From Escherichia coli (GTDB lineage: Bacteria > Pseudomonadota > Gammaproteobacteria > Enterobacterales > Enterobacteriaceae), in the NCBI RefSeq assembly GCF_003018115.1, contig NZ_CP027457.1: a stretch of DNA of 64,000 nucleotides, one strand, 5' to 3'. Under the pieces are notes generated by a model. The model was not told where the DNA came from and did no database searches. It saw nothing but the letters and a program-made list of their open reading frames with translations. Both the position numbers and the translations under genes were made by a program. Of this stretch, positions 1,314-45,222 are shown in pieces; the first letter of the stretch is position 1; each line of letters starts with the position of its first letter.

Positions 1314-1494
<181 letters not shown>

Positions 1495-2145: not shown

Positions 2146-2161
2146 GTAATAGGCTACCTTG

Positions 2162-5145: not shown

Positions 5146-5238
5146 AAAAAAAACCGGATGCGAGGCATCCGGTTGAAATAGGGGTAAACAGACATTCAGA
5201 AATGAATGACGGTAATAAATAAAGTTAATGATGATAGC
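5146..5238 (-). ncRNA. micF: MicF antisense sRNA
   Basis: Reverse complement reads GCTATCATCATTAACTTTATTTATTACCGTCATTCATTTCTGAATGTCTGTTTACCCCTATTTCAACCGGATGCCTCGCATCCGGTTTTTTTT, which is the remembered micF sequence. Divergent from ompC. Terminator hairpin plus U-run present. Confidence 0.9.
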
Positions 5239-5393
5239 GGGAGTTATTCTAGTTGCGAGTGAAGGTTTTGTTTTGACATTCAGTGCTGTCAAATACTTAA
5301 GAATAAGTTATTGATTTTAACCTTGAATTATTATTGCTTGATGTTGGGTGCTTATTTCGCCATTCCGTAATAATCTTAAAAAGTTCCCTTGCA

Positions 5394-13223: not shown

Positions 13224-13598
13224 TGATGTGCCACATCCGGCATGGTATGCCGGATGTGGCGTATGCTGATAAGACGCGCCAGCGTCGCATCAGGCAACCG
13301 GCTCGGGCGTTGGATGTCGGATGCGGCGTAACCGCCTTATCCGACCTACGGGGTGGAGCACTTCACAGCGGTGTAGGCCTGATAAGACGCGTCAGCGTCG
13401 CATCAGGCAACCGGCTCGGACGTTGGATGTCGGATGCGGCGTAACCGCCTTATCCGACCTACGGGGTGGAGCACTTCACAGCGGTGTAGGCCTGATAAGA
13501 CGCGCCAGCGTCGCATCAGGCAACCGGCTCGGGCGTTAGATGTTGGATGCGGCGTAACCGCCTTATCCAACCTATGGGGTGCCGCACTTCACGGCAGT
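13224..13598. repeat. BIME cluster: about three tandem ~113-bp units of REP palindromes
   Basis: Near-identical blocks (GCCGGATGTGGCG.. / GCCTGATAAGACGCG(C/T)CAGCGTCGCATCAGGCAACCGGCTCGG..). ORF-track peptides repeat with a 113-bp offset (13321 vs 13434). Confidence 0.85.
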
Positions 13599-14087
13599 TT
13601 AGCGAACTTCCGCGTTGTTAATTTTCTCTTCTGCCTTCCAGACGCGGTATTTCACATCTACATTGTCTGGCGTATACACCACGATCGGCAGCTTGCTGTT
13701 GTAACGCAGCATTCCAGCATCGCCCAGATACGCGGTGACAAATTTCTTCTCTTTCTTGCCATCCGGGCAGGCCATCATCGTGGAAACCGGCGAGCTAACT
13801 TTATCAAAGACATAATAATCATAGCCCCAGCCTTCCAGCGTTTTGCTTTCCAGCTTCCCGCCGAGACGATGCAAATTGCAATCGACTTCCAGCGTCTGAC
13901 CGATTAACAGTTCTACTTTCAGGGTAGATTCATCTTCTTGCGGGGTTAACTGAATCACCTGACGCTTCATGCCTTTTTCAGCTTGTGGATAAGGCGCGAT
14001 TTTTTCCAGTGGCTGGACGCTCTCTGCCGCCCAGGCGGAAGTGGTGGCAAAAGCGGCAAACAATACTGCAGGTAGAATGGTCTTCAT
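13599..14087 (-). CDS. eco: Ecotin (periplasmic serine protease inhibitor)
   Basis: 162 aa with signal peptide [20 protein letters not shown]. Remembered ecotin sequence. Confidence 0.93.
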
Positions 14088-30402: not shown

Positions 30403-30463
30403 TAACAGACAATAAACAGGCCGTGATGTGTCGCGGTCTGTTTATCGAATTAAATGCAGATAT

Positions 30464-30495
30464 AAAAAAACCAACCTTTACGGTTGGTTTTTTTT
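30464..30495. terminator. Bidirectional hairpin terminator (yejO end; probably the original proL terminator displaced by the island)
   Basis: AAAAAAA-CCAACC-tttac-GGTTGG-TTTTTTTT. On the minus strand it directly follows the partial tRNA 3'-end repeat. Confidence 0.7.
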
Positions 30496-30517
30496 GGGAT
30501 TTTTGGTCGCACGAGAG
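30496..30517. repeat. Island-distal att repeat (partial copy of tRNA-Pro 3' end)
   Basis: GGGATTTTTGGTCGCACGAGAG versus GGCGATTTGGTCGGCACGAGAG at 41337-41358. Confidence 0.75.
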
Positions 30518-30578
30518 TAGTTTAATTGAACGTGTAACTTAATGATTTAAAAGAATGAGTCTGATTCAACTTTTAAGC

Positions 30579-30602
30579 CGTATAACCAAACGTATAGCTA
30601 AA
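30579..30602. promoter_or_regulatory. Tandem 12-mers CGTATAACCAAA CGTATAGCTAAA (candidate integrase arm-type sites, distal arm)
   Basis: Same motif and orientation as CGTATAACTAAA CGTATAACTAAA at 41189-41212 next to int. Confidence 0.55.
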
Positions 30603-30772
30603 TTTATTTGCTGAAAAAATGTACAATTTAGAGTCAGATTTTCCCAGATGTTTAATTTATAAAACGAAGCTGGCGGCTGTTCTCTGATATGTGGATCCCC
30701 ATATCTGGAACCCTACCGGAATTTTTTTCCGGTTACCCTTTAATCAGGCTGGTGGGCTTTACCTGTTCGGTA

Positions 30773-30795
30773 GGTATGATCATTATGATCATACC
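30773..30795. repeat. Perfect 23-bp palindrome GGTATGATCAT-T-ATGATCATACC
   Basis: 11-bp arms read directly from the sequence. The nearby hairpin ACCGGAA-ttttt-TTCCGGT lies at 30715-30733. Confidence 0.9.
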
Positions 30796-30848
30796 TTTCG
30801 CCCCAATGGGAGGTAAAAGCGCCAACTGGACGGTTAAACCGTCTTTTT

Positions 30849-30883
30849 GTCACATCGTGTCACTGGTTGTCACTCTCCGTCAC
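30849..30883. repeat. Four GTCAC repeats with exact 10-bp phasing
   Basis: GTCACatcgt GTCACtggtt GTCACtctcc GTCAC, starting at 30849, 30859, 30869 and 30879. Preceded by hairpin GACGGTT-a-AACCGTC plus TTTTT. Confidence 0.9.
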
Positions 30884-30910
30884 GATGTCCGCTCGCCTGG
30901 CTGTAAATCA

Positions 30911-31139
30911 AACTACGAAATTTTCGTAGTTGTGAGTAAGCCCCAAAATATGGGGATTACTCTTACTACCCAAACTACGGGTAGTTTCCGTAGTTTCATA
31001 GTCGAGTTGCAGATCTGCAACTCCCCCACCAGCCAGCGCAATTTTGCGCTTTGCTTTAAGTTCAGCGAGTTACAGCGCCGACTTCCTCAAATTGAGGTTG
31101 CCGGAAATATCAACCAGTTACGAGGCTCAAAATTGAGCC
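30911..31139. repeat. Train of seven short palindromes/hairpins in non-coding DNA
   Basis: 30911-31 AACTACGAAAtTTTCGTAGTT; 30941-55 CCCCAaaataTGGGG; 30972-87 AAACTACggGTAGTTT (plus CGTAGTTT at 30989-96); 31004-23 GAGTTGCAGATCTGCAACTC (perfect 20-mer); 31035-50 AGCGCAAttTTGCGCT; 31085-97 CCTCAAaTTGAGG; 31124-39 GGCTCAAaaTTGAGCC. Confidence 0.9.
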
Positions 31140-31156
31140 GCCTTTAAATCAACACG

Positions 31157-31438
31157 TTACCGCCGTAACCGCTCCGGCTTCTTCCAGTTGTACGTAATTT
31201 TCTCTTTCTCCCTGTACATCTCTACACGGCGATTGTAGGCCAGCATTTCAAGAACGCGGATCCGTATGTCGCGCATATCAACGCCATTAAGTTCTATACC
31301 ATCACGGCGCATCACCTCCACCACTACACGCACATAATTATCTGCGGTCATGCTGTCCGGCTGCGTGGCCTGTTCGTCAACCTGCTGGCTGATTCCGGCG
31401 ACGCGGCGGATTAATCCCAGTATTTCGGCTTCTGTCAT
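31157..31438 (-). CDS. Hypothetical island protein (93 aa)
   Basis: ORF with ATG preceded by a G-rich SD-like stretch. Follows repeat copy 1. No recognisable motif. Confidence 0.5.
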   Translation of the reverse strand: MTEAEILGLIRRVAGISQQVDEQATQPDSMTADNYVRVVVEVMRRDGIELNGVDMRDIRIRVLEMLAYNRRVEMYREKEKITYNWKKPERLRR

Positions 31439-31475
31439 TGTGCCCCCATCGCGCTGGTGAAGAAAACAAGCTCAG

Positions 31476-31690
31476 ATTTTTTGTAAAGAATCTGTCACGC
31501 TAAAAGATGTCGAACAAAAAACAACCTTCTTCATCATCTTTTTTACATCAAAGCAATTAAAAACAATCACTTACGAACATGATGATGATGACGATAAAAT
31601 CAAAAAAATGCGTTTTTTTCCGCGCCGCCCGCCCCGTGTTCAGGCCCACCCCACCAGGAGGACCCGCAAAAAAGGCGGCTGGTGCCGCCT
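31476..31690 (-). repeat. Copy 1 of ~215-bp island repeat (terminator + G-rich cos-like core + A/T tracts)
   Basis: Aligns block by block with 34015-34228. Shared blocks: TTTTTGTAAA, GAACAAAAAACAACC, ATAAAATCAAAAAAATGCG, TTTTTCCGCGCC, CCGCCCCGTG, CAGGCCC..CCCCACCAGGAG and the terminator hairpin. Confidence 0.85.
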
Positions 31691-31695
31691 TGTTG

Positions 31696-33585
31696 TCATA
31701 GTGAATCGGTACCGCCTGATTTGACCATACCGCGATAATCCAGAGCTGCCACACCTGCATCAATACGGACTTTCCAGGCCACGCCGTCAACGATAAAACC
31801 TTCCTGCTGTTCAAGGTAAGGCTCGTCATTGCCATCAAGATAAGCCACCTCGATTGTGTCCGTTCCCTGTGCGGAAAGCATGTACCATTGTTTTTCGCTG
31901 ATATCATCAAGGCGGGGATCGACGATGATATCAAGTAGCTTGTGGTACGGGTTAAAGATCCCGCTGTTTTTATCAGCCCCGAAAGGTGCGGTTGAGTTAA
32001 TCATCTGCAACGCGCGATCTTCCAGTGCTGCCGGAACTAAAAGGAATTTAGGCGCAATATTCAGCACTTCGCCATTTTTGTCCTTCTGTGTGCGCATCAG
32101 GTGACGTGCTGCACTAAGTCCCGGTGTTGTCAGTCCTGCTTCAATCAGGTTGCTGTGTTTTTTGTCAAACAGCGTTATTCCGTCAGAAAGTTTTACGTTG
32201 CCTGTAAGCACCAGATTAACCAGATTTCCCACCGTTCTTGATGCTGCACGGCCCATAGCCATTGGCACCGTTGATAACTGATCAAGGTCATCATTGATTA
32301 TCGCCTGGCGGGTAATGCTGAAAATATTCCCGTAAGTAGCCAGCGCGATGGGTTCACCGCGATCGCTGGTGGTGATGTATTTATATTCTGCCCCTTCCGG
32401 CACTTTGTTTAACGTTGAGAAGCCATTCATACCAACGCGGCGGGCTTCCCGGAAGTTTGAAAGGGAACCTTTTTTCGTCCACTGGCGGAATGTTTCGCCG
32501 CTGTGCTCCCAGCCTGCAAGCACTGATTTTTCAGCGCCACCAGCAAGGATATCGGTAAAATCGCTGCTGCTGTGGGTGAATGCCGCGTTTACTATCTGCG
32601 AGCGTGTGCCGTAGCTGCCCGTGCTTATACCACGATGGGTTAATGATGCCTGTGCCATATCGAAAAGGCTCATCATGGCGTAAGGATTACCGCGTTCGGC
32701 CCGTTCGTGACCAAGACGCGCATTAAGCCCCTGACGCATGGCATCGCCGGTTATATTGCCGTTATCCGTGTACGCGTAGTAAAGATTTGCGGGGGTGGTT
32801 TTGTTTGTTGGCGTTGATTCTTTACCCATAGCGAGTAAAAGGCGTTCGCGTGCATTCTCAACGCTACATTCTGAATCCGCAAGACAACTTATAGCCAGGT
32901 CGTTATATCTTCCGTTGAAGGTGCCAAACAATTCACGGATTCCGTTAAGTCGTTCCTGTTCGCCACTGCCAGTTTTCTGGCTGATCATGCTTTTAATTTT
33001 TTCCGGCATATTTGAAAAATCTCCGATTCGTTTTGATTCAATTCGGGCCATTGCTGTAATCGCGGGTATAACCTCATCTGCGAAGCCGTTAGCCTTACAC
33101 TCATTGCCATCCATCCAGGTTTCCGCCTCCATCATTGAGGTGATCTCCTGTTTGCTCCTGCCCGTTCTTCCGGCATAGGTTTCTGCCATCGTGTCGCCCA
33201 GCTTGTCCATCAGATCAGCAAAGCGGCGAACGTCGCCCGACACTCCGGCAGTAACACCACGGGGGGCATGTATCATCATCATCGCGTTTTCAGGCATAAC
33301 GATGTGATCTCCACACATGGCAATAAACGACGCCATAGAAGCCGCCATGCCTTCAATGTGTACGATTTTTTTTGCCGGATGATTTTTCAGGGCGTTATAG
33401 ATAGCCAGCCCTTCAAAGATGTCGCCACCAGGTGAATGAATGCTCAGATGGATTTCAGACGCATTACCACACGCGTTGATCTCGTCAGTAAGTGCCGATG
33501 CTTTTACACCGTACCCGCCGATCTCGTCATAAATGCGCACATAGACAACATCTGCCATAGCCTTAATGGAAAACCATGTTTTCAT
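31696..33585 (-). CDS. ClpP-family prohead protease fused to phage major capsid protein (629 aa)
   Basis: N-terminus: IHSPGGDIFEGLAIYNAL..GMAASMASFIAMCGD..MMMIHAPRG (ClpP/S14-like Ser and His motifs). The C-terminal ~330 aa resembles HK97-fold/Mu gpT-like capsid proteins (..ALATYGNIFSITRQAIINDDL..WYMLSAQGTDTIEVAYLDG..). Assignment is from memory of the family, not from a search. Confidence 0.75.
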   Translation of the reverse strand: MKTWFSIKAMADVVYVRIYDEIGGYGVKASALTDEINACGNASEIHLSIHSPGGDIFEGLAIYNALKNHPAKKIVHIEGMAASMASFIAMCGDHIVMPENAMMMIHAPRGVTAGVSGDVRRFADLMDKLGDTMAETYAGRTGRSKQEITSMMEAETWMDGNECKANGFADEVIPAITAMARIESKRIGDFSNMPEKIKSMISQKTGSGEQERLNGIRELFGTFNGRYNDLAISCLADSECSVENARERLLLAMGKESTPTNKTTPANLYYAYTDNGNITGDAMRQGLNARLGHERAERGNPYAMMSLFDMAQASLTHRGISTGSYGTRSQIVNAAFTHSSSDFTDILAGGAEKSVLAGWEHSGETFRQWTKKGSLSNFREARRVGMNGFSTLNKVPEGAEYKYITTSDRGEPIALATYGNIFSITRQAIINDDLDQLSTVPMAMGRAASRTVGNLVNLVLTGNVKLSDGITLFDKKHSNLIEAGLTTPGLSAARHLMRTQKDKNGEVLNIAPKFLLVPAALEDRALQMINSTAPFGADKNSGIFNPYHKLLDIIVDPRLDDISEKQWYMLSAQGTDTIEVAYLDGNDEPYLEQQEGFIVDGVAWKVRIDAGVAALDYRGMVKSGGTDSL

Positions 33586-33776
33586 AGCCAGGCTCCTAAC
33601 GTTGCCTGGTACCAGTATTCAACCGCGCTGCGTGTGATTTGTCCTTTCGTGGGCACTGGCATACCCGGGTGATTATCTTTGATGAACTGCTGATAGCGTT
33701 CGATCTTCTCCATAGTTCCGGCGTCTATGTGCACAGTGGCACTTTTATCCGGCTTTCTGGTGTTGTTCTCTGGCAT
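33582..33776 (-). CDS. Small protein (64 aa from second Met), possibly ribbon-helix-helix-like, translationally coupled to the capsid fusion
   Basis: GGAGG lies 7 nt before the ATG at 33776 (MPENNTRK..). The stop overlaps the capsid-fusion start (ATGA). The pattern TVHIDAGTMEKIERY..TKGQITRSAVEYWY suggests a beta-alpha-alpha fold. Confidence 0.55.
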   Translation of the reverse strand: MPENNTRKPDKSATVHIDAGTMEKIERYQQFIKDNHPGMPVPTKGQITRSAVEYWYQATLGAWL

Positions 33777-33970
33777 AAATCCGCCTCCGTTTTGATTAAC
33801 GGGCATCATTATTGATCGATAAAAGTAATAGATAAATCATTTTCTACCTGAAAATCAGATTATGTTTTTTCTGATTATCCTCAGAGAGGCAAAGCCATTG
33901 ACGCATTTTTGCTATTGAAGCAATATTAAGACTCGTCATCCTGGCGATAAAAACTCCTTTGTCGTGTAAA

Positions 33971-34008
33971 AGCGCCTCCGGTAACAGCAATCGGGGGCGC
34001 TTTTTTTT
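33971..34008. terminator. Strong hairpin flanked by A8/T8 in the leader of the capsid operon (bidirectional terminator-like)
   Basis: GCGCCTCCG-11 nt-CGGGGGCGC (9 bp, one G.T) followed by TTTTTTTT on the plus strand. On the minus strand the same stem is followed by TTTTAC. Confidence 0.6.
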
Positions 34009-34014
34009 GCGCCT

Positions 34015-34228
34015 GTTTTTTGTAAATGTTTTCGGGAACGTTCCAGTGATGAACAAAAAACAACCCGATTCGACACTAAAAATTTTTATTCCTCAATATA
34101 TCAATAGCTTATAGTGGTGGTGATGGTGCCATAAAAATCAAAAAATGCGCCTTTTTCCGCGCCCCTCCGCCCCGTGGACAGGCCCCCCCCACCAGGAGTA
34201 CCTACAAAAAAGCCGGATTGCTCCGGCT
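34015..34228 (-). repeat. Copy 2 of ~215-bp island repeat
   Basis: See copy 1. The terminator AGCCGGA-ttgc-TCCGGCT plus a T-run (minus strand) lies immediately after the PerC-like gene. Confidence 0.85.
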
Positions 34229-34234
34229 GTGTGA

Positions 34235-34507
34235 TTAGCTGTCTTGGTAATTACACCATATTTCATCGCTTACACCATCTATACCCATTTCAGCATAAGT
34301 GCGATCTACTGCCTTTCTCAGGTCTCCGAAGTTATCCGGCGGCTCCGGTGGCCTCTGTGCCTTCCTGGAACATTCCAGCCGTCGCATCGTAACCTGATGC
34401 CGTTCCTTGTCTGTCTCCACCAGCTGCATGACTTCACCCCATCGCGCCGCCGCCCTCCGGTAAAATCCTTTCGCCTCGAGTTCCTCCGCTATGCGGTCAT
34501 GTATCAT
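34235..34507 (-). CDS. PerC-family-like transcriptional regulator (90 aa)
   Basis: The N-terminal pattern IAEELEAKGFYRRAAARWGEVM resembles the AE.LE..G..RRAA.RW signature I recall for PerC/Pch proteins. Confidence 0.5.
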   Translation of the reverse strand: MIHDRIAEELEAKGFYRRAAARWGEVMQLVETDKERHQVTMRRLECSRKAQRPPEPPDNFGDLRKAVDRTYAEMGIDGVSDEIWCNYQDS

Positions 34508-34772
34508 CGCCTGACTCTCCGGTTTTTACGTTGATGGTTGTTACCTGTTCCGCTTCGGCAATCTCCCGTTCTGTCAACGTGGCAAAGTTTGCCGCCGCTG
34601 TGGTCATGAATGCGCTTATCAGTTCGGGATGCTCCTTCGCGTATCCTTCCCCCGCGTGGCGGTCTATTACCCTGATTGCCACCTTTAAGGCGTGCTCTGT
34701 CATGTCTAACGCTTTATATTTCGGCTCTGTTCTGTCTCTGCGCATTTTGGTTATCTCCTCACTCATGCTCAC
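34497..34772 (-). CDS. Hypothetical island protein (91 aa, GTG start)
   Basis: ORF overlaps the downstream gene by 11 nt. Part of the tightly packed operon. Confidence 0.5.
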   Translation of the reverse strand: MSMSEEITKMRRDRTEPKYKALDMTEHALKVAIRVIDRHAGEGYAKEHPELISAFMTTAAANFATLTEREIAEAEQVTTINVKTGESGDDT

Positions 34773-34958
34773 TTTTACACCTCACTTTTTAAAGCGTCTC
34801 GCTTCGTCTCACTTGATATTTTTTGATGCTTTATGTGTGTGTTTCATAAGGATTTTTTTACTCCTCACTTTTGAGCATGTATACAGGTGAGAAAGTGAGT
34901 AATCGTGTTAATATTTTGTAAAAACCTCACCATTACTCACTTTTGCTACTCACTTTTT
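34758..34958. repeat. Iteron cluster (CTCACTTTT family) flanking an AT-rich core: candidate island replication origin
   Basis: CTCACT(T) copies at 34758, 34768, 34781, 34808, 34864, 34936 and 34949; CTCACC at 34926; inverted GGTGAG/AAAGTGAG at 34886-34899. The AT-rich stretch is 34815-34862. Lies immediately 3' of the replication ATPase gene. Confidence 0.6.
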
Positions 34959-36366
34959 ACAGTGGTCCTACATCATCACCATCAATGTAAATCACGGCGT
35001 CTTTTTCCAGTTTGGCTAACCATCGCCGCATATTTTTCACGTCATACCCAAGCCGTTTCATGTCATCACGTAACAGCGGGATCGTGCACTTGTCGCCGTT
35101 CTGTGTGCGTGAACGGATGCACCCCCATAGTGCGGTATGGTTTTCCGTCTTGTTGCCTGCCTCCTCGATGCGTTCCAGTTCAACGGGAGGGCGCGGCTTA
35201 TCCACCACCACCAGCGACGTGATTAACTCCCCGTCAGCGTCGGTAAACAGCTCCACCACGCGTAAGTCATATGCGGCTTCTTTGAGTTCCTCCGCGTCCT
35301 TCATTTTGGTGCATGAGATAACCAGCGCTTCGCTTCCTGCGTCCTCCCTGCGTATCCGGTATTCAGCATCCAGTGATGCACGAAATGCACTGGAACCGCG
35401 CGCGCCTTTCGTCTCATCCTTGCCGGAATGGTGAACCACCAGCACCGTGGCCCCTGTGCGTCGTTTCAGTTCGTCACAACCACGGATAAACGCCCCCATA
35501 TCACGGGAATCATTTTCATCATTCCCACCAAAGCAACGCGCCAGCGTATCCAGAATAATCATGCGTACAGGTTTACCCGTTTCCCGCTCCACCTGACGGG
35601 CAGCGATAACCATTTCATCAACATCAAGCGGGACCGCCGGAAAGATGGGACGGTTTACCAGATACAGATTTTTCACCTGCTCACCGTGCACAACCTCCCA
35701 GGCTTTTACACGACGCGGAACGCCGATACCGCCTTCACCAACCACATAGAGAACAGCGCCATGCGCCACCCTGCGGCCTCCCCACTGGCGGCCCGTGGAA
35801 ACGTGACACGCCCACGATCCGGCAAGGAATGATTTATAGGAACCGCTCGCCCCGTATATGCTGCAAAGCGACGATGCCGGAATAATCCCCTTTACCACGT
35901 AATCAAGCTGTGTGTCGTATCCGGTAGATCCAACGCTCATCGGTAGCGTGGTTTTTCGCTGGGGGATTTTTTTCATGACCAGGCTTTCCCCGCGTTCCCA
36001 TGCCTCCCTAAGCCGTGGAAGCTGGTCGCTCCATTCCTCCAGCAATTCGAAATTTTCAGAAAGTAGCCGCGCCTCCTGGACTCCGGCGATCGCCAGTTTC
36101 GTGGCGATGGTTAACAGCTGCGGCTCTTCAATATTTCCGGCGCGTATCACCGTCGCCCTGTATCGCCCATCATCAACAATCTGGAGGTTATCCAGTTTGC
36201 TTAACTGATAACGCCCCAGATAAACGGGAGGGACTGGATCGCCTGCTTTTTTGGCCTGTGCAATGATGTAATGCTCTGCGAATGAGTGAGCATCAATACC
36301 CGCAAAAATAATCGCATCGGTGTATTTATCTTTCGGTAATCGTTTTACGTTCGGTGCCAGTTTCAT
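34957..36366 (-). CDS. Replication ATPase, RepA/AAA_25 (RecA-like helicase) family, 469 aa
   Basis: Walker A GASGSYKS, Walker B RMIILDT and VVHHSGKD motif, typical of RepA-like helicases of plasmids and satellites. N-terminal ~140 aa unassigned. No zinc-finger or Toprim primase motifs seen. Confidence 0.7.
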   Translation of the reverse strand: MKLAPNVKRLPKDKYTDAIIFAGIDAHSFAEHYIIAQAKKAGDPVPPVYLGRYQLSKLDNLQIVDDGRYRATVIRAGNIEEPQLLTIATKLAIAGVQEARLLSENFELLEEWSDQLPRLREAWERGESLVMKKIPQRKTTLPMSVGSTGYDTQLDYVVKGIIPASSLCSIYGASGSYKSFLAGSWACHVSTGRQWGGRRVAHGAVLYVVGEGGIGVPRRVKAWEVVHGEQVKNLYLVNRPIFPAVPLDVDEMVIAARQVERETGKPVRMIILDTLARCFGGNDENDSRDMGAFIRGCDELKRRTGATVLVVHHSGKDETKGARGSSAFRASLDAEYRIRREDAGSEALVISCTKMKDAEELKEAAYDLRVVELFTDADGELITSLVVVDKPRPPVELERIEEAGNKTENHTALWGCIRSRTQNGDKCTIPLLRDDMKRLGYDVKNMRRWLAKLEKDAVIYIDGDDVGPL

Positions 36367-36662
36367 TTTTTACCCCTGAATCCGTTAATCATGGTTTTCA
36401 GCTTCTGGATGTTTGCCCGTGCCCTGGCGTTGCTGGTGGGCACGTTATGCGGCGCGGTCTGTACCAGAGAAAAATCACGCCGGAACTGATAAACAGGCAT
36501 CACGCAATCATATTCGTAACCTTCACGGCGGTAAGTTACGCACCGTCCCGCCACGCCCTTAATCATTACCGTGCCGCCGTACTGGTCGCGGTAAATATCA
36601 CCGCGCGTAAATTTAGGGTGAGTGTTGCCACTGGCAGTTAAGCCAGAATATTTAAGTTTCAT
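36363..36662 (-). CDS. Small protein, DUF4222-like (99 aa)
   Basis: The pattern YRDQYGGTVMIKGVAGRCVTYRREGYEYDCVMP resembles remembered DUF4222 proteins found upstream of satellite replication genes. ATGA overlap with the ATPase gene. Confidence 0.45.
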   Translation of the reverse strand: MKLKYSGLTASGNTHPKFTRGDIYRDQYGGTVMIKGVAGRCVTYRREGYEYDCVMPVYQFRRDFSLVQTAPHNVPTSNARARANIQKLKTMINGFRGKK

Positions 36663-36667
36663 TATTT

Positions 36668-36901
36668 TTATTCTCCGGTGTGCTGTTCGTTATATCTGTC
36701 GTGCAATGTCTCTATTTCCTGCAACTCATTTATTACAGGCTCAAGAAGCGTTATTAATGCCGTGGCAATTCTTGATTTTTGTTTGTCGCGTTCATTGTCG
36801 CCAAGTGTTTCAAGCCATATGCGCAATATTTCCATCATATTTTCACTGTGAGAAAGTGCAAGAAATACGCGATCTGTTGTTTCGTGGTAAATATCACGCA
36901 T
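36668..36901 (-). CDS. Hypothetical small helical protein (77 aa)
   Basis: ORF packed 1 nt after the upstream stop. Confidence 0.5.
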   Translation of the reverse strand: MRDIYHETTDRVFLALSHSENMMEILRIWLETLGDNERDKQKSRIATALITLLEPVINELQEIETLHDRYNEQHTGE

Positions 36902-36902
36902 A

Positions 36903-37124
36903 TTAATTACCGTCCGTTGTTTTTCTTAAAACAGCTTCTGTCACGAAATCGGCATAGTTAGCGGCAATATCAAGAATATTTAGCCCTGTATCTCTGTGCT
37001 CATCAGTGCAAAGAAAGAAAAAAGCCACCCGCATAATTTCAGATATTGACGAAAGCGCATCAGCCGCATCATCAGGAACGCCGGAAAATTCTTGTTTCAG
37101 GGAATAAAAACGATCATCACGCAT
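36903..37124 (-). CDS. Hypothetical small protein (73 aa from MRDDRFY)
   Basis: The ATG at 37124 overlaps the upstream stop (ATGCGTGA) and is preceded by a GGGGGGG SD-like run. Confidence 0.5.
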   Translation of the reverse strand: MRDDRFYSLKQEFSGVPDDAADALSSISEIMRVAFFFLCTDEHRDTGLNILDIAANYADFVTEAVLRKTTDGN

Positions 37125-37356
37125 AACCCCCCCCATTTTCACAATCAGTAATCAGGATGGTTTTAGCCTCATTCAGTGCCATATCAGCACTAAATTGCAT
37201 AACAGCCAGTGAGTGAGGAACGAAAGCCCCGGTATATTCTGTTTCGCTGGTGGCGTGCTTATGTGCCCTGTCCGCGATAACAGAAATATCAATCAGCGCG
37301 TGCATCAGCGTTTTGATGGCTTCGGCGGCTGCGTCCGGTGTGGTTTTATTGTGCAT
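37117..37356 (-). CDS. Hypothetical small protein (79 aa)
   Basis: ORF overlaps the upstream ORF by 11 nt. Confidence 0.5.
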   Translation of the reverse strand: MHNKTTPDAAAEAIKTLMHALIDISVIADRAHKHATSETEYTGAFVPHSLAVMQFSADMALNEAKTILITDCENGGGYA

Positions 37357-37675
37357 AAAGCATCCCCTGAATATTCGTGTTAATCATTCCGGCACGTTTT
37401 GTGATTTCCTGTAATGATTCCCTTGTGGCGACAATTGCTTCATCTGGTAAGTGGTAATTACACACCACGCGACCTTTATCCACATTGACCAGTAGCTGCC
37501 CTGTGAATTTCTCACGAAACTGAATGCGGTTAAGGTCAGTAAGTGACAGATTAATAATGGCGCACCTCCTGACGAATACGGGCGGCAAATACAGCAACAC
37601 AACCGGACGGGCAACGGTTACGCGCTTCGCGTTCCGTCCAGGCGGTGACGTGGATGATTTGAGATTCTCCGGCAC
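37346..37675 (-). CDS. Hypothetical protein, start uncertain (109 aa from GTG 37675; ~71 aa if initiated at ATT 37558 after AGGAGG)
   Basis: Long open frame overlapping the icd-like ORF out of frame. A strong AGGAGG (37570-37565) has no canonical start codon at proper spacing, only ATT. Confidence 0.4.
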   Translation of the reverse strand: MPENLKSSTSPPGRNAKRVTVARPVVLLYLPPVFVRRCAIINLSLTDLNRIQFREKFTGQLLVNVDKGRVVCNYHLPDEAIVATRESLQEITKRAGMINTNIQGMLYAQ

Positions 37676-37748
37676 TCAGGGCCAGAAAACGCCACACAAA
37701 GGCAGTTTGTGTGTGTACAAGGTGTGGTATATGATTTACGGCAACCAT
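37551..37748 (-). CDS. Small protein (65 aa), tentatively Icd-like (host cell division inhibitor family)
   Basis: GAGGAG SD 5 nt before the ATG. First gene of the leftward operon. The pattern FVWRFLALS..IIHVTAWTEREARNR..VFAARIRQEV resembles my recollection of Icd-like proteins of P4-like elements. Unverified. Confidence 0.5.
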   Translation of the reverse strand: MVAVNHIPHLVHTQTAFVWRFLALSAGESQIIHVTAWTEREARNRCPSGCVAVFAARIRQEVRHY

Positions 37749-37812
37749 AACGGCTCCTCGTTTACGTTGTTGGTTAGAAGCCCCGTTACTGCTCCTACAG
37801 TGCGGGGTTTCG
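37742..37812 (+). ncRNA. Candidate small RNA A (cis-antisense to the RBS/start of the icd-like gene)
   Basis: Promoter-like TTGTGT (37707-12) -17 bp- TATGAT (37730-35). Hairpin GCCCCG-17 nt-CGGGG (37780-37807) followed by TTTCGTCGTTTC. A homologous unit lies at 38453-38565. Confidence 0.35.
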
Positions 37813-37837
37813 TCGTTTCAACACCTTGCCTAAATAA

Positions 37838-37891
37838 GGTGTTGAACACCAATTTAAATCGAGGTGTTAAACACGTCAAGTGTTGAACACT
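37838..37891. promoter_or_regulatory. Three palindromic operators (GGTGTTGAACACC family) overlapping divergent promoter-like hexamers
   Basis: 37838-50 GGTGTTgAACACC (perfect); 37863-75 GGTGTTaAACACG; 37879-91 AGTGTTgAACACT (perfect). Minus strand: TTGACG (37879-74) -17- TAAATT (37856-51). Plus strand: TTGAAC (37883-88) -17- CATACT. Confidence 0.6.
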
Positions 37892-37940
37892 TATTTTTTT
37901 TCCTGCATACTGCATTTGTTTTTTATGAGGGGTGCTCAAC

Positions 37941-38120
37941 ATGGCGACAAAAGCAGTAAACGCAAAATCACAAACAGTTGCGGCAAGGGTTCCACATGAA
38001 GTTATGAACAATGTTGAGGCGGTAAAAATGCCCGGCGAAAGTACAGGGCAGTTTGTTACAGCTGCATTAAAGCGGGAAGTTGAATACCGCCAGCGTCGCA
38101 AGGCCAAAGAATCAGAATAA
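37941..38120 (+). CDS. Ribbon-helix-helix DNA-binding protein 1 (59 aa)
   Basis: ATG preceded by GAGGGG. TVAARVPHEVMNNVEAV..STGQFVTAALKREV fits a beta-strand/helix/helix (CopG/Arc/MetJ) layout. Confidence 0.65.
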   Translation: MATKAVNAKSQTVAARVPHEVMNNVEAVKMPGESTGQFVTAALKREVEYRQRRKAKESE

Positions 38121-38177
38121 TCACTATCAGCGCCGTGGTGTGAGGTACTACGGCGCATTGCTTTACAGGGCAGTATC

Positions 38178-38405
38178 ATGACCAACAACACACTATCACC
38201 AATACAAGACACGCAAACGCAAGATGATGAAATCATCCGGCAAAGGCAGTCAGAAGCCTGCGCCAGACTTGAGGAAGAACTAACCAGAACAAAAATACCA
38301 CCACCAGCGCCGCGCTTAGTGCCACCAGAAAAATTTGCCCTTGAAGATTTTGTCGATAAATACCCACGGCGGCTTAAATCCGGCAAAAACCGACCGCCTG
38401 GCTGA
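38178..38405 (+). CDS. Small protein (75 aa), paralog of 38856..39059
   Basis: MTNN.. start. Shares the motif F.L(E/D)(D/E)F(V/L).KY.R with the second copy. Confidence 0.5.
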   Translation: MTNNTLSPIQDTQTQDDEIIRQRQSEACARLEEELTRTKIPPPAPRLVPPEKFALEDFVDKYPRRLKSGKNRPPG

Positions 38406-38487
38406 GTGCACAAAACCGAACTATGAAACGGATTATTCCGTTTCCGGGGCGTTTGTGTGTGTATAAAGAGTAAGCTATGCTCTTTTA

Positions 38488-38565
38488 TAGCCATAATCGT
38501 TACCTCAATTAATGGTTTGGTTAGACGCCCCGTATGTGAGCCACCACTGCGGGGCGTTGTTTTTT
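38488..38565 (+). ncRNA. Candidate small RNA B (homolog of RNA A with a strong intrinsic terminator)
   Basis: TTGTGT (38453-58) -17 bp- TATGCT (38476-81). TTGGTTAGA, then stem ACGCCCCG (38525-32) / CGGGGCGT (38550-57), then TTGTTTTTTG. Confidence 0.4.
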
Positions 38566-38583
38566 GTATAACGGTAAGTACAA

Positions 38584-38624
38584 TGGTAATTACCATGTAA
38601 CTATAGTAATTAAGGGTAATTACC
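38584..38624. promoter_or_regulatory. Palindromic operators GGTAATTACC (x2, plus a degenerate middle copy) at the RHH-2 start
   Basis: TGGTAATTACCA at 38584-95, AGTAATTAAG at 38605-14, GGTAATTACC at 38615-24, abutting the ATG at 38625. Confidence 0.55.
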
Positions 38625-38798
38625 ATGTCAACACCATTGGAAAAGCGATCGCCTCCATACCAAATGCGGCTACCAGAAGAATTCAGAGCACAACTTGAAG
38701 AGGCAGCGAAAGCAGACGGTGACACTTCTTTAGCCACCTGGATCAAGCGAGTACTCCGAAAAGAATTACAGCAACGCGGTATTGAACCCAAAGGATAA
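38625..38798 (+). CDS. Ribbon-helix-helix (Arc-like) DNA-binding protein 2 (57 aa; below the ORF-track cutoff)
   Basis: Manual translation gives MSTPLEKRSPPYQMRLPEEFRAQLEEAAKADGDTSLATWIKRVLRKELQQRGIEPKG. The MRLPEE..L..AA...G.S....I pattern is typical of Arc/MetJ-type repressors. AAGGG SD lies 8 nt upstream. Confidence 0.6.
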   Translation: MSTPLEKRSPPYQMRLPEEFRAQLEEAAKADGDTSLATWIKRVLRKELQQRGIEPKG

Positions 38799-38855
38799 AA
38801 AACATCAGCGCCGTGGCGTGAGGAACTCCGGCGCATTGCTTTACAGGTACACACA

Positions 38856-39059
38856 ATGACCAACAAAGAATCAACCAATACACCATCGCAAAAAACGAAC
38901 AGAGAGCACGAAAATATGGCGTTCGAGCATGAATCAGAAAGATTCGCACCATGCGCTTTTGTCCTTGATGAGTTTCTAAAAAAATATTCACGTTCTGAAC
39001 GGATGAAAATGGCAGCACAATACGGCCCCAACAAGCAAGATAATTGCCCACCAGCCTGA
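38856..39059 (+). CDS. Small protein (67 aa), paralog of 38178..38405
   Basis: MTNK.. start with FVLDEFLKKYSRSERMK motif. Preceded by the conserved 44-nt hairpin block. Confidence 0.5.
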   Translation: MTNKESTNTPSQKTNREHENMAFEHESERFAPCAFVLDEFLKKYSRSERMKMAAQYGPNKQDNCPPA

Positions 39060-39127
39060 TCGCGGTTATCATGCCCGGGCTTATGATTGTTGACACATAC
39101 GGCGCAGCGGGTTAATTGTTCAGAAAG

Positions 39128-39156
39128 GTGGCTCCATTTCGGGGCCGCTTTTTTTA
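39128..39156 (+). terminator. Rho-independent terminator ending the rightward RHH operon
   Basis: GGCTCC-atttc-GGGGCC stem, then GC and TTTTTTT. Confidence 0.6.
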
Positions 39157-39180
39157 TGTTCATCATTTGCCCTATATATG

Positions 39181-39387
39181 TTAAGCGGTCGTTCCGCGCG
39201 CTTCTTGTTCGCGTTCTTTCATCCATGCGATTACGTCTTCCTCATACCATCCGCGACGGCGCAAACCGACACGAAAACCCTGCGGGAATTCTCCGGCGTT
39301 GATCATGCTTTGCAGCGTGCTGTCTGCCTTAATGTGGATAAGTTTTTTTACTTCCTGGCGAAAGATGACTTTTTTGATTGCTTCCAT
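39181..39387 (-). CDS. AlpA-family phage regulatory protein / excisionase-like (68 aa)
   Basis: The pattern ..LIHIKADSTLQSMINAGEFPQGFRVGLRRRGWYEEDVIAWM.. matches the MerR-like wHTH AlpA/Xis family signature (R.v.W...dV..W). Confidence 0.8.
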   Translation of the reverse strand: MEAIKKVIFRQEVKKLIHIKADSTLQSMINAGEFPQGFRVGLRRRGWYEEDVIAWMKEREQEARGTTA

Positions 39388-39406
39388 CGTGATTTACCTC
39401 ATTAAT

Positions 39407-39488
39407 CCGGTGTATTCCGGTGAGAAATACGGTAAATCATCGGATGCAGGGAAAAACAGTACTCACCGTTTTTAAACGGTATACACCG
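39407..39488. promoter_or_regulatory. Nested inverted repeat across the alpA promoter region
   Basis: CCGGTGTAT (39407-15) and CCGGTGAG (39417-24) pair with CTCACCG (39462-68) and ATACACCG (39481-88). Confidence 0.55.
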
Positions 39489-39520
39489 TTTTTTATATTG
39501 ATGATTTGAAAGGGATTTAT

Positions 39521-39546
39521 AAAAAAAGCGGCATTTCTGCCGCTTT
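39521..39546 (-). terminator. Rho-independent terminator after orf83
   Basis: Minus strand: GCGGCA-gaaa-TGCCGC followed by TTTTTTT. Confidence 0.7.
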
Positions 39547-39554
39547 CAGGATTG

Positions 39555-39806
39555 TTACCGCCATTTTTTTGGCCTGCCTCCGGTCTTCATGGATGCCGGA
39601 CGTACAACCTTATCAATACTTACAGCCAGATTTCTGGAAGCCCCACGGGATACCAGGAAATCTACTACCTGTTTTTTTGATGGGGCCGTCGTTCTGTCCT
39701 CCGGATCGTAGGTTGACCAAAATTCATGCTGAACCATCAGGGCCAGTTGCAGCCCGTCGCAATTGCATCTGAAATTTGTTTGCATCTTAACAGTTTCATT
39801 TTTCAA
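39555..39806 (-). CDS. Hypothetical protein (83 aa) downstream of int, basic C-terminus (GGRPKKWR)
   Basis: ORF between int and its terminator. No confident family assignment. Confidence 0.45.
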   Translation of the reverse strand: MKNETVKMQTNFRCNCDGLQLALMVQHEFWSTYDPEDRTTAPSKKQVVDFLVSRGASRNLAVSIDKVVRPASMKTGGRPKKWR

Positions 39807-39883
39807 GGCCTCGTCGTTAAATGTGATGCAATTATACGACGGTTTTAAATGGTTTTCGTAGTTTTTACTGGTTTTCTGTACAG

Positions 39884-41125
39884 CTAAACGGCTCGGATAC
39901 CCCTTTTACCACTGGCGAGGGTTACGCCCGTCGCCGCAGCCTCGACAAATTCGCCCCACCAGCGCATAAGCACGATGCGTTTTTCTATGTAGTTGCTCCG
40001 GTTGTATGCCCGTCTGACTTCGTTGGTGTCGACGTGGGCAAGTGCGGCCTCTATTACGTCCGGCTCAAAGCCTTCTTCGTTCGCTGCTGTGCTGAATATG
40101 GCGCGTAATCCATGAGACACCAGCACGCCAGCGAATCCCATGCGTCGTAATGCTGCGTTAGCGGTCTGGCTGTTCATCGGCTGCTGTGGGTCTTTCAGAC
40201 TCGGGAAAACATAATCGCGGTGGTGGCTGATTGGTTTCATAGCCTCCAGCACTGCCATAGCCTGGTCACAAAGCGGGATAACGTGGTCGCGGCGCATCTT
40301 CATGCGTCCGGCGGGTATGGTCCAGCGTTGCGCTTCCATGTCGATTTCTTCCCAGCGTGCCGACGATGCTTCAACGGGACGGGTTACGGTCAGTAACTGC
40401 CATTCAATCAGTAATCTGGTCTGCCGTTCTGTTGCCGATACTGATAAAGCCTGCATAAGCTCCGGCAGCTGTTCGGGGCGGATTGTTGGCATATGTTTTT
40501 TTACAGGGGAGGGGAACGCCTTACGCACATTCATAGCCGGATTGGCATCAATCATCCCACTATTGGCGGCGTAATCCATTACCTCATTTATACGCTGTAA
40601 AACTCGCTTGAGCGTTTCCAGGTTGCCACGTTCCTTGATGGGGGTAAGCACCTCAACGAACCTGCGAGCGGTCAGGGTGTCTATTGGCGTGTTGCCGATG
40701 AACGGGAATACATATTTTTCCAGCGATCGCCAGATGTCTTTAATCGTATTGGGGGCCAGATTCTGGCTGATTTTCACCTGGTACCATGCTGTTGCCACAT
40801 TTTCGAACGTGTTCCCTTGTCTTCGGGCCTCTGTCTCTCTTTTTTGCCTCTCGTGGTCCTGCGGGTCAGTTCCGGCACGAATTAACGCCCTGTACTCGCT
40901 ACGGCGTTTTCTGGCATCAGCCAGGGAAACATCATCAAGCGATCCAAAACTCAGCAATATTCTTTTTTTGTCCGATGGTCGGTAGTAGGAAAATCTCCAG
41001 AGTTTTGATCCGGACGGTTTGATCAGGAGAAAAAGCCCTCCGCCGTCCTGTAGGGTGTATTCCTTTTCTGCTGGTCTGGCTGCTTTGATCTGTACTGTGG
41101 TTAATGGGGGTGTTTTTCTCGCCAT
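39884..41125 (-). CDS. Tyrosine integrase, P4-type (413 aa)
   Basis: N-terminal DUF4102-like arm-binding region (LTTVQIKAARPAEKEYTLQDGGGLFLLIKPSGSKLWRF). C-terminal catalytic motifs (HGLRAIFST..AHVDTNEVRRAYNRSNY). Adjacent to the tRNA. Confidence 0.92.
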   Translation of the reverse strand: MARKTPPLTTVQIKAARPAEKEYTLQDGGGLFLLIKPSGSKLWRFSYYRPSDKKRILLSFGSLDDVSLADARKRRSEYRALIRAGTDPQDHERQKRETEARRQGNTFENVATAWYQVKISQNLAPNTIKDIWRSLEKYVFPFIGNTPIDTLTARRFVEVLTPIKERGNLETLKRVLQRINEVMDYAANSGMIDANPAMNVRKAFPSPVKKHMPTIRPEQLPELMQALSVSATERQTRLLIEWQLLTVTRPVEASSARWEEIDMEAQRWTIPAGRMKMRRDHVIPLCDQAMAVLEAMKPISHHRDYVFPSLKDPQQPMNSQTANAALRRMGFAGVLVSHGLRAIFSTAANEEGFEPDVIEAALAHVDTNEVRRAYNRSNYIEKRIVLMRWWGEFVEAAATGVTLASGKRGIRAV

Positions 41126-41156
41126 ATGCTTATGATTCCAAACGAAAAAACAGGGT

Positions 41157-41212
41157 TTTAGTTATACGGCTTTAGTTATACGTCAGCCCGTATAACTAAA
41201 CGTATAACTAAA
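41157..41212. promoter_or_regulatory. Four 12-mers (2 direct TTTAGTTATACG + 2 inverted CGTATAACTAAA) upstream of int
   Basis: Copies at 41157-68, 41171-82, 41189-200 and 41201-12. Same motif as 30579-30602 at the other island end. Confidence 0.6.
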
Positions 41213-41215
41213 AAA

Positions 41216-41336
41216 TCCGGCTGATAGCTTATAAATCCGGTGATGTTCGGTGACTAAAAACCATAAAAAAACCCGCCAATCAAGTAATTGGCGGGCTATC
41301 CCTGTCTTATTCGATGATTTCCGGTGGTATCCGGTG
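41216..41336. promoter_or_regulatory. Cluster of TCCGGTG-type motifs between int and the att core
   Basis: TCCGGCTG at 41216, TCCGGTG at 41236, TTCGGTG at 41246, TCCGGTG at 41320 and 41330. The same heptamer occurs twice in the alpA promoter (39406-39424). Confidence 0.5.
41264..41295 (-). terminator. Rho-independent terminator downstream of proL (supplied by island DNA)
   Basis: Minus strand: CCCGCCAAT-loop-ATTGGCGGG followed by TTTTTTT. Confidence 0.7.
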
Positions 41337-41358
41337 GGCGATTTGGTCGGCACGAGAG
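41337..41358. repeat. tRNA-proximal att repeat
   Basis: GGCGATTTGGTCGGCACGAGAG. Pairs with 30496-30517. Confidence 0.75.
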
Positions 41359-41420
41359 GATTTGAACCTCCGACCCCCGACACCCCATGACGGTGCGCTA
41401 CCAGGCTGCGCTACGTGCCG
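41344..41420 (-). tRNA. proL: tRNA-Pro (anticodon GGG)
   Basis: Reverse complement is CGGCACGTAGCGCAGCCTGGTAGCGCACCGTCATGGGGTGTCGGGGGTCGGAGGTTCAAATCCTCTCGTGCCGACCA (77 nt, encoded CCA, T-loop GGTTCAAATCC, U-GGG-G anticodon loop). Confidence 0.93.

Positions 41421-44829: not shown

Positions 44830-45222
<393 letters not shown>

Follow-up and report, generated by a model that had tools for sequence, protein, structure and literature searches.

A predicted lambda-type cos site in a satellite island at tRNA-Pro of Escherichia coli

The window analysed here is a stretch of 64,000 nucleotides of an Escherichia coli chromosome (contig NZ_CP027457.1). At a tRNA-Pro(GGG) gene it carries a satellite island that resembles PICIs (phage-inducible chromosomal islands), and within this island, on the minus strand, lies a G-rich core that an initial annotation had likened to the cosN of phage lambda. 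We conclude from sequence comparisons that this core is very probably the cosN of a complete lambda-type cos site, through which a lambdoid helper phage would package the island.

Anatomy of the site

The site, hereafter copy 1, spans approximately positions 31503-31665 of the minus strand, from cosQ to R1. It occupies the 257-bp gap separating a gene for a fused ClpP-like protease and major capsid protein (ClpP/MCP) from a conserved open reading frame (ORF) of 93 aa. Its base pairs (bp) are counted from the predicted left nick, bp 1 being position 31634 of the minus strand; all parts are listed in Table 1. The interval first proposed for the site, 31596-31660, overlaps the core and falls short of the functional unit. 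The 61-nt string quoted for it is exactly present on the minus strand, at 31584-31644, which overlaps that interval with an offset of about 12-16 nt.

Copy 1 opens with cosQ, whose first base is 31 nt upstream of the predicted left nick. Next comes a predicted 12-nt 5' cohesive end, GGGCGGGCGGCG, at 31623-31634, with CG on either side, and then a segment at the position of lambda's I2. The predicted binding sites of cosB follow in the order R3, a site resembling the consensus for integration host factor (IHF), inverted R2, and R1. The IHF-like site overlaps an invariant A/T tract, TTGTTTTTAAT. In lambda and N15, R3 occupies bp 50-65 and bp 48-60, respectively (PMC9026076).

Several of these features are those of lambda: the cosQ GGGTCCT, the spacing from cosQ to the nick (31 nt, against 30 in lambda), the left half GGGCGG, CG at both nicks, and the succession of R3, IHF site, inverted R2 and R1. 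The first ORF also starts at a similar place, with the ATG of the 93-aa ORF at bp 197 and that of lambda Nu1 at bp 191. Unlike in lambda, the R repeats are of the TCATCATC type rather than the unrelated CGTTTCC type, an A-run replaces lambda's T-run after CGCGG, and the cognate small terminase subunit (TerS) would be of the DUF1441 type, not Phage_Nu1.

In lambda-like phages the 7-bp cosQ is highly conserved, as are bp 1-6 of the end and the CG dinucleotides flanking both nicks, while bp 7-12 vary naturally; the I2 segment has a role in termination (PMC4669245). The sequence of copy 1 agrees with all four, with an exact cosQ, bp 1-6 as in lambda, CG flanks, and variation confined to bp 7-12. 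Its 12-mer is identical to lambda's at 7 of 12 positions, including the whole left half, with mismatches at bp 7, 8, 9, 10 and 12. The initial annotation had given the lambda end as CAGGTTACG/GGGCGGCGACCT/CGCGGGTTTTCGC (slashes here and below mark nicks) and part of cosB as TTCGTCATAACTTAATGTTTTTA, both of which agree with NC_001416. Its suggestion of a 12-nt overhang other than lambda's fits the predicted end, which differs only within bp 7-12.

The 9-mer ACGGGGCGG, on which the comparison with lambda had leaned, is indeed shared exactly. By itself it lacks significance: two occurrences in the window compare with 0.63 expected, and 16 of 100 shuffled sequences contain it at least twice. We replaced it with the composite motif GGGTCCT-N18-24-CG GGGCGG N6 CG, which has a single match in the window (31621-31665, minus strand) and none in 100 shuffles. 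Two smaller likenesses are no more than positional or coincidental. At bp 68-73, lambda has CGTCAT within I1, beyond R3, whereas here CGTCATCATC forms the core of R3 itself (bp 42-51); the supposed hairpin CGCGG-A7-CGC has a stem of only 3 bp.

Directly after the ClpP/MCP stop codon stands an intrinsic-terminator-like hairpin (31668-31691) whose T-run runs into cosQ. In the alignment of satellites with phages it is satellite-specific and stands where phages have GATAACCATTATCA. The terminator scanner did not list it, probably because its longest stem consumes part of the T-run.

Between cosQ and cosN we also noted a G-rich stretch with four G3-4 runs, GGTGGGGTGGGCCTGAACACGGGGCGGGCGG (31623-31655, minus strand; equivalent in the second cos copy, 34161-34193). 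Conserved across this cos family but not present in lambda, it could form a G-quadruplex on the strand that would become the 5' overhang side.

Phage homologs, conservation and alternative readings

The segment 31471-31672 (minus strand) matches un-annotated DNA in VT1-Sakai and in eight Stx2-converting lambdoid phages at 84-86% identity, the lowest E-value being 2e-56. In VT1-Sakai, the match falls between Rz and a 158-aa gene that is followed by the gene for the large terminase subunit (TerL), which is the canonical position of cos. In phage 1720a-02, the homologous site likewise lies between Rz and the terminase genes. The VT1-Sakai-type TerL has GpA_ATPase and GpA_nuclease domains and is thus of the lambda A type. 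The 158-aa protein belongs to PHROG 141 ('terminase small subunit') and DUF1441, not to the Phage_Nu1 family. Compared with PDB sequences, it gave no match to lambda Nu1 or Rpp, so its identification as TerS is based on PHROG 141, DUF1441 and gene position. The proposal that the core belongs to the cos of a lambdoid helper is supported by this homology (~86% over 200 bp to the Rz-terminase intergenic region), the gpA-type TerL, the rules of PMC4669245 and the R3-I1-R2-R1 layout of cosB; the alignment with phage cos regions that had been suggested as a check gave E = 2e-56 over the 200 bp.

We scanned viral contigs with the pattern ACGGGGCGG-N3-9-GCGGAAAAA and retrieved 130 sites in at least 120 loci. 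For the large majority of these sites, TerS and TerL homologs follow 160-240 bp downstream. The exact core of copy 1 occurs in 62 viral loci; among them are about 46 phage contexts and 12 satellites, where the core has the same position. We then aligned the copies of this cos type from phages with those from satellites and compared the groups one block at a time. The search keys had fixed most of R3, the left half of cosN and, as part of the retrieval pattern, the first 9 nt of the I2-like segment, so these carry no weight in the comparison. Among blocks outside the retrieval keys, identity between phage and satellite copies was 0.93 for cosQ, 0.985 for the I1 tract, 0.974 for R2 and 0.993 for R1. 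The three spacers reached 0.60-0.72, and the flanks 0.39 and 0.46. High identity is therefore limited to the predicted protein-binding blocks, which speaks for selection on function and against a relic in decay as well as a wholesale capture of recent date. In 454 genomes, 80% or more of copy 1 is present, and sequence of its type occurs in ~10% of complete E. coli genomes, islands and prophages counted together.

In E. coli PICIs, functional cos sites are known and the helper's TerS is required; for those with cos, redirection of the terminase by Rpp is the published mechanism (PMC6092414, PMC6739421). One such island, EcCICFT073, has two functional cos sites plus captured capsid genes, and its particles hold phage-sized DNA, that is, several island copies per head (PMC6092414, PMC6739421; further analysis by Murialdo and Feiss, PMC9026076). 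Its cosQ and cosN are almost those of lambda, it has no phage-like R sites, and its rpp lies ~100 bp after cos1 (PMC9026076, PMC6739421). By analogy, copy 1 could be a working cos that the helper's TerS recognises poorly by itself, with an island factor such as the 93-aa protein redirecting or modulating the terminase in the manner of Rpp. The 93-aa ORF follows the downstream cos in all related satellites, starting at bp 197, the position of Nu1 and rpp, and related satellite lineages (L010, L024, L099) have a TerS-like gene (~49% identity) between the cos and this ORF.

We nevertheless consider redirection by an island factor unlikely. Islands of the Rpp type combine a cosB without R sites with a winged helix-turn-helix (HTH) rpp of 139-154 aa about 100 bp downstream; here cosB is phage-like, its R2, R1 and I1 tract being 0.97-0.99 identical to the phage copies, and the ORF in question has 93 aa. 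Searches of the 93-aa ORF and of a conserved 75-aa ORF of the island against Pfam, PHROGs, NCBIfam, PDB sequences and the VT1 TerS gave only PHROGs of unknown function or chance-level matches; neither protein resembled TerS, a PDB chain or a named family, and in these tests no Rpp- or TerS-like gene was found in the island. A single-sequence AlphaFold model of the 93-aa protein (mean confidence, pLDDT, 67.5) is an all-helical, low-confidence three-helix bundle with no beta wing, and Foldseek found nothing for it in the PDB at E <= 0.001. A cosB that mimics the helper's own would need no Rpp-type redirecting protein.

Less probable still is that copy 1 is a non-functional relic, which would have come along with the protease/capsid gene when both were captured from the late region of a helper, and would now be decaying. 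Satellites of this class do capture helper late-gene clusters (bioRxiv 10.1101/2022.07.18.500453), the second cos copy of the island has a degenerate cosQ and no right-hand CG flank, and the captured capsid gene of EcCICFT073 is dispensable for transfer. Neutral decay after joint capture would not, however, leave a capsid gene ~51% identical to the helper genes beside cos sub-sites that are 93-100% identical with diverged spacers. The architecture is also kept across many genomes and attachment (att) sites, as the 454 genomes above attest and as strain 042 illustrates with the same layout at cspD-clpS. That the region between the capsid gene and the 93-aa ORF does no more than terminate transcription or form a regulatory hairpin, its likeness to lambda cosN being fortuitous, is hardly credible: the hairpin with its T-run just upstream, a second weak GCG/CGC stem with a T-run within the interval and an equivalent hairpin at the second copy would fit, but the upstream hairpin is satellite-specific and outside the phage homology, the homologous 200 bp sit at the phage cos position, and the composite motif is not expected by chance.

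A cos of the P2/P4 type was rejected. The 19-nt cohesive end of P2 and P4 is GGCGAGGCGGGGAAAGCAC, and it has no match in the window at up to 3 mismatches, in line with the initial view that the helper is not P2-like. Homologs of the P4 alpha-primase, sid, psu and delta were absent from the named matches of the island proteins.

The second copy, DNA ends and predicted packaging

A second cos (copy 2) lies between perC and the 75-aa ORF, 2,538 bp from copy 1 and upstream of it in the gene order of the island. Its cosQ departs from the conserved sequence, and a GC rather than a CG follows its 12-mer, as in VT1-Sakai. The initial annotation had spoken of two repeat copies, and had seen neither the PICI-type identity of the satellite nor the different cosB specificity of copy 2. 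The best phage matches of copy 2 are 1720a-02 and CP-1639 (~90% over 168 bp). The cosB of copy 1 is 82% identical to that of VT1-Sakai and 68% to that of 1720a-02, and the cosB of copy 2 is 86% identical to 1720a-02 and 66% to VT1-Sakai; the cosQ and cosN core of 1720a-02 are the same as in copy 1.

The small terminases of these two phages differ mainly in the N-terminal 60 residues. Their TerS proteins are 55% identical over residues 1-60, 82% over residues 61-110 and 100% over the rest, and their TerL proteins are 99.7% identical. Wherever the exact copy-1 core occurs in a phage context (~46 cases), each cosB type goes with its own TerS allele, with no exception; cosB adjoins the 5' end of terS, so linkage alone could also produce this. 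The arrangement resembles that of lambda and phage 21, with shared cosQ, cosN and TerL and with specificity in cosB and the DNA-binding domain (DBD) of TerS, although here the specificity is predicted from sequence. All sampled satellites with two cos sites have one cosB type upstream and another downstream, and a second satellite lineage has two further cosB types plus its own TerS-like gene. The two copies of the island have the left half of cosN and I2 in common, and each cosB matches one of the two TerS alleles that circulate with a nearly identical TerL in Stx-type lambdoid phages. We tentatively suggest that the pair may serve as a 'dual-key' packaging cassette, giving one Rpp-less satellite access to two helper specificity groups. 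If true, this strategy would be distinct from the Rpp redirection of EcCICFT073. The suggestion is weakened by the degenerate cosQ of copy 2 and by the non-identical 12-mers.

Genome records of related phages bear on the position of the nicks. The independent records of phages cdtI (AB285204) and Tritos (OV696610, an LF82 prophage) begin with GGGCGGGAGCGTCGCGGAAAAA and end with ...GGGTCCT...CCACG, so both break exactly at the homologous left nick. With mEp460, these phages share the cosQ, the left half and the I2 segment of copy 1. They differ from it in the right half (GAGCGT or GAGCGG), in having 2 nt more before the A-run, offset by a cosQ-nick spacer 2 nt shorter, and in their cosB types. 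The record of phage Ayreon was discarded as end evidence as it had been opened arbitrarily. None of the viral contigs with the exact core breaks at the nick; most of them are prophage calls. One record, LR595868.1 (mEp460_4F5; L126/L127), starts 4 nt upstream of the predicted nick and is missing 3 nt of the cohesive-end region relative to mEp460, a deletion that is probably an assembly artefact at physical ends.

A number of observations weigh against our reading of copy 1 as a functional cos with the predicted ends. Its nicks are predictions from sequence. The basis on which the ends of the cdtI and Tritos records were chosen is undocumented, and the Tritos/LF82 paper is silent on cos. Among apparently functional phages (loci L006-L125), the length from left nick to A-run is 15, 16 or 17 nt. 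The 17-nt form (GGGCGGGAGCGT CGCGG) is the commonest, 15 nt is found in copy 1, and 16 nt in VT1-Sakai and copy 2. In the shorter-core classes the spacer from cosQ to the nick is 2 nt longer, so that the distance from cosQ to the A-run is nearly constant. The pattern CG/N12/CG holds in the 15- and 17-nt classes and fails in the 16-nt class. Given this variation in core length, neither the right-hand nick nor the overhang length that follows from it is certain. The 12-mer of copy 2 differs from that of copy 1 at bp 7, 8, 11 and 12; copy 2 might act as a competitor of copy 1 or give rise to ends that do not match, and deletion of cos2 in EcCICFT073 raised transfer (PMC6092414, PMC6739421). As for the island itself, the comparison of its tRNA-Pro end with its left end found no att repeat (no exact repeat of at least 12 nt and no 16-24-mer with up to 2 mismatches), its AlpA-like gene scores below the Pfam cut-off (17.8 against 21 bits), and the 64-kb window contains no helper prophage.

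If copy 1 works as established lambda and PICI biology suggests, the helper would be a replicating lambdoid phage of the VT1-Sakai/Stx type, with a gpA-type TerL, a DUF1441-type TerS and Gifsy-2-like heads of fused protease/capsid protein. After helper induction, the island would excise and replicate as concatemers. The helper's own TerS would bind R3, R2 and R1 of copy 1 while IHF bends the DNA between R3 and R2, and TerL would thereby be positioned for staggered nicks at CG/GGGCGGGCGGCG/CG. Packaging would proceed toward the 93-aa ORF, att and int, and stop at a later cosQ and cosN once the head is full. Each phage-sized head would probably receive several island copies, unless the island capsid protein builds small heads; four copies come to ~41 kb, compared with helper genomes of ~45-50 kb.

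How does this compare with known systems? EcCICFT073 and the island described here are both of the Gram-negative PICI type, with two lambda-like cos sites in direct orientation, captured head gene(s) and dependence, here inferred, on the helper's gpA-type terminase. Both also have a satellite-specific terminator hairpin leading into cosQ, and the cos1 flank of EcCICFT073, GAGAAATCCGGCTTTTTTT, resembles GAGCAATCCGGCTTTTTT upstream of copy 2. Unlike EcCICFT073, the island has a cosN that diverges from lambda at bp 7-12, a phage-like R3-I1-R2-R1 cosB in both copies, no detected Rpp- or TerS-like gene, and a head gene that is a fused ClpP/MCP rather than lambda E/D-like. In carrying what would be a copy of the helper's own cos, to be packaged by an unmodified helper terminase, the island resembles 11capE with its helper 50icd, SaPIbov5 and P4. 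Satellite 11capE shares 258 bp at 90% identity with the cos of 50icd (bioRxiv 10.1101/2022.07.18.500453); in contrast to 11capE, the window island is chromosomal and at tRNA-Pro. P4 differs in its unrelated 19-nt cos of P2, and SaPIbov5 in its Gram-positive, HNH-dependent cos system.

Satellites of the same architecture are also inserted in the TerL gene of lambdoid prophages (L010, L019, L032, L067, L094 and L104), in the order cos, terS, 5' part of terL, int ... cos, 93-aa ORF, 3' part of terL. They correspond to the 'helper-embedded satellites' of bioRxiv 10.1101/2022.07.18.500453. Those of L019 and L067 sit in prophages with VT1-type TerL, so that satellite and helper are physically linked, which is circumstantial evidence for helper dependence. 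In E. coli 042 (L133; NZ_CP042934.2, 939312-948164), an island with the order int ... RepA, cos, ClpP/MCP, cos, 93-aa ORF lies between cspD and clpS. We did not equate it with the published EcCIO42, whose genes are listed under EC042_17xx names; the cspD-clpS island may thus be a second, separate island in this strain. A different satellite class (L017, L086, L098 and L112) has the same core motif reversed relative to its genes and, nearby on the other strand, a lambda Nu1-like gene (34-55% identity). These may be Rpp/TerS-encoding islands with an inverted cos.

The site belongs to the known class of cos-bearing Gram-negative PICIs and represents no new kind of element. It departs from known PICI cos sites in three respects: the right half of cosN, a cosB that is of phage type in either copy, and what appears to be a lack of Rpp. 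These sequence features indicate a widespread island family that would pirate packaging by direct mimicry of the helper's cosB rather than through Rpp. The predicted helper group consists of VT1-Sakai/Stx-converting lambdoid phages with an S-type small terminase, here meaning one 97-100% identical to BAB19581. With Shiga-toxin phages as the likely helpers, such islands could be co-mobilised with toxin phages in Shiga toxin-producing E. coli, or interfere with them. The 15-17-nt cores, the compensating cosQ spacing and the swapped cosB/TerS-DBD modules on a single TerL also provide a data set on how gpA-type terminases measure their nick sites.

The island and its genes

The window is E. coli chromosome, with the ccm genes, narP, an autotransporter gene, yejM and others. 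Judged by the organisation of its predicted genes, the island (Table 1) is a Gram-negative PICI-type satellite: it has int at one end, replication genes on one strand and a length of ~10.2 kb. No tail, lysis or terminase genes were found in it, and Rfam gave no match within it. We estimated its left boundary from the start of homology to islands in other genomes. Near-full-length relatives occur in 11 complete E. coli genomes, and parts of the island in 1,865 of 5,426; the RefSeq annotation of the closest relative gives the same gene set. The RefSeq ortholog of the AlpA-like gene is annotated as a 'helix-turn-helix transcriptional regulator'. The ClpP/MCP gene sits between the two cos copies, and the phages that carry its closest homologs, ~51% identical over their whole length, are also the ones with a shared cos. 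The fusion protein might redirect capsid size, or be dispensable like c1499 of EcCICFT073.

Table 1 Predicted features of the two cos copies and of the satellite island (window positions)
Feature	Position	Strand	Sequence, evidence or remarks
Intrinsic-terminator-like hairpin	31668-31691	-	AAGGCGGC-ACCA-GCCGCCTT plus T-run; sequence, inverted repeat, satellite-vs-phage alignment
Copy 1 cosQ	31659-31665	-	GGGTCCT, as lambda cosQ; bp -31 to -25
Copy 1 cosN with flanking CGs	31621-31636	-	CG/GGGCGGGCGGCG/CG; composite motif, lambda comparison; nicks inferred
Copy 1 I2-position segment	31596-31622	-	CGGAAAAAAACGCATTTTTTTGATTTT; bp 13-39; cosN-cosB link; near-invariant between phage and satellite copies (0.97)
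Copy 1 R3-like repeat	31578-31595	-	ATCGTCATCATCATCATG; bp 40-57; inverted-repeat partner of R2; position comparable with R3 of lambda and N15
Copy 1 IHF-consensus-like site	31561-31573	+	AAACAATCACTTA; bp 62-74; 1 mismatch to WATCAANNNNTTR; I1 position, between R3 and R2
Copy 1 R2-like repeat, inverted	31532-31544	-	AAAAAAGATGATG; bp 91-103; inverted repeats
Copy 1 R1-like repeat	31503-31519	-	TTTTGTTCGACATCTTT; bp 116-132; orientation as R3; inverted repeats
Copy 2, whole	34043-34203	-	Between perC and 75-aa ORF
Terminator-like hairpin after perC	34206-34228	-	Directly upstream of copy 2; terminator scanner
Copy 2 cosQ	34197-34203	-	Degenerate, AGGTACT
Copy 2 cosN	34161-34172	-	GGGCGGAGGGGC; CG left, GC right at 12 nt
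Copy 2 R3	34114-34133	-	TATGGCACCATCACCACCAC
Copy 2 IHF site	34099-34111		Perfect consensus
Copy 2 R2	34068-34082
Copy 2 R1	34043-34058
PICI-like satellite	31150-41343	-	~10.2 kb, at tRNA-Pro(GGG); gene content, homology to islands in other genomes
Conserved 93-aa ORF	31157-31438	-	phrog_1561, a PHROG with no assigned function
Fused ClpP-like prohead protease / HK97-fold major capsid protein	31696-33585	-	629 aa; CLP_protease and Phage_capsid_4 (Pfam); phrog_133
Conserved 75-aa ORF	33582-33809	-	Downstream of copy 2; phrog_4934, a PHROG with no assigned function
PerC-family gene	34235-34507	-
RepA/AAA_25 helicase	34957-36366	-
DUF4222 gene	36363-36662	-
Weak AlpA-like HTH	39181-39387	-	68 aa; Phage_AlpA
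Tyrosine integrase	39884-41125	-	Island end at tRNA-Pro
tRNA-Pro(GGG)	41344-41420		Adjoins island

Within the island, a tandem-duplicated two-gene module (37932-39059, plus strand) consists of a YlcI/YnfO- or Arc-like small gene and a hypothetical gene. A 75-nt repeat with 80% identity (38114-38188 and 38792-38866) betrays the duplication, which probably explains at least part of the island's extra length over the closest relative, that of strain 95-3322. On the opposite strand, the module is overlapped by a spurious 496-aa ORF. Between the autotransporter gene and the estimated left end of the island lie ~750 bp (30403-31150) with no recognisable gene or att repeat. Elsewhere the window has ordinary chromosomal RNA features, namely the MicF small RNA (5146-5239) and the L25 leader (45136-45161), along with arrays of REP/naRNA4 elements (repetitive extragenic palindromes; 1313-1389 and 13264-13572), with three tandem 113-nt units at 13266-13604.

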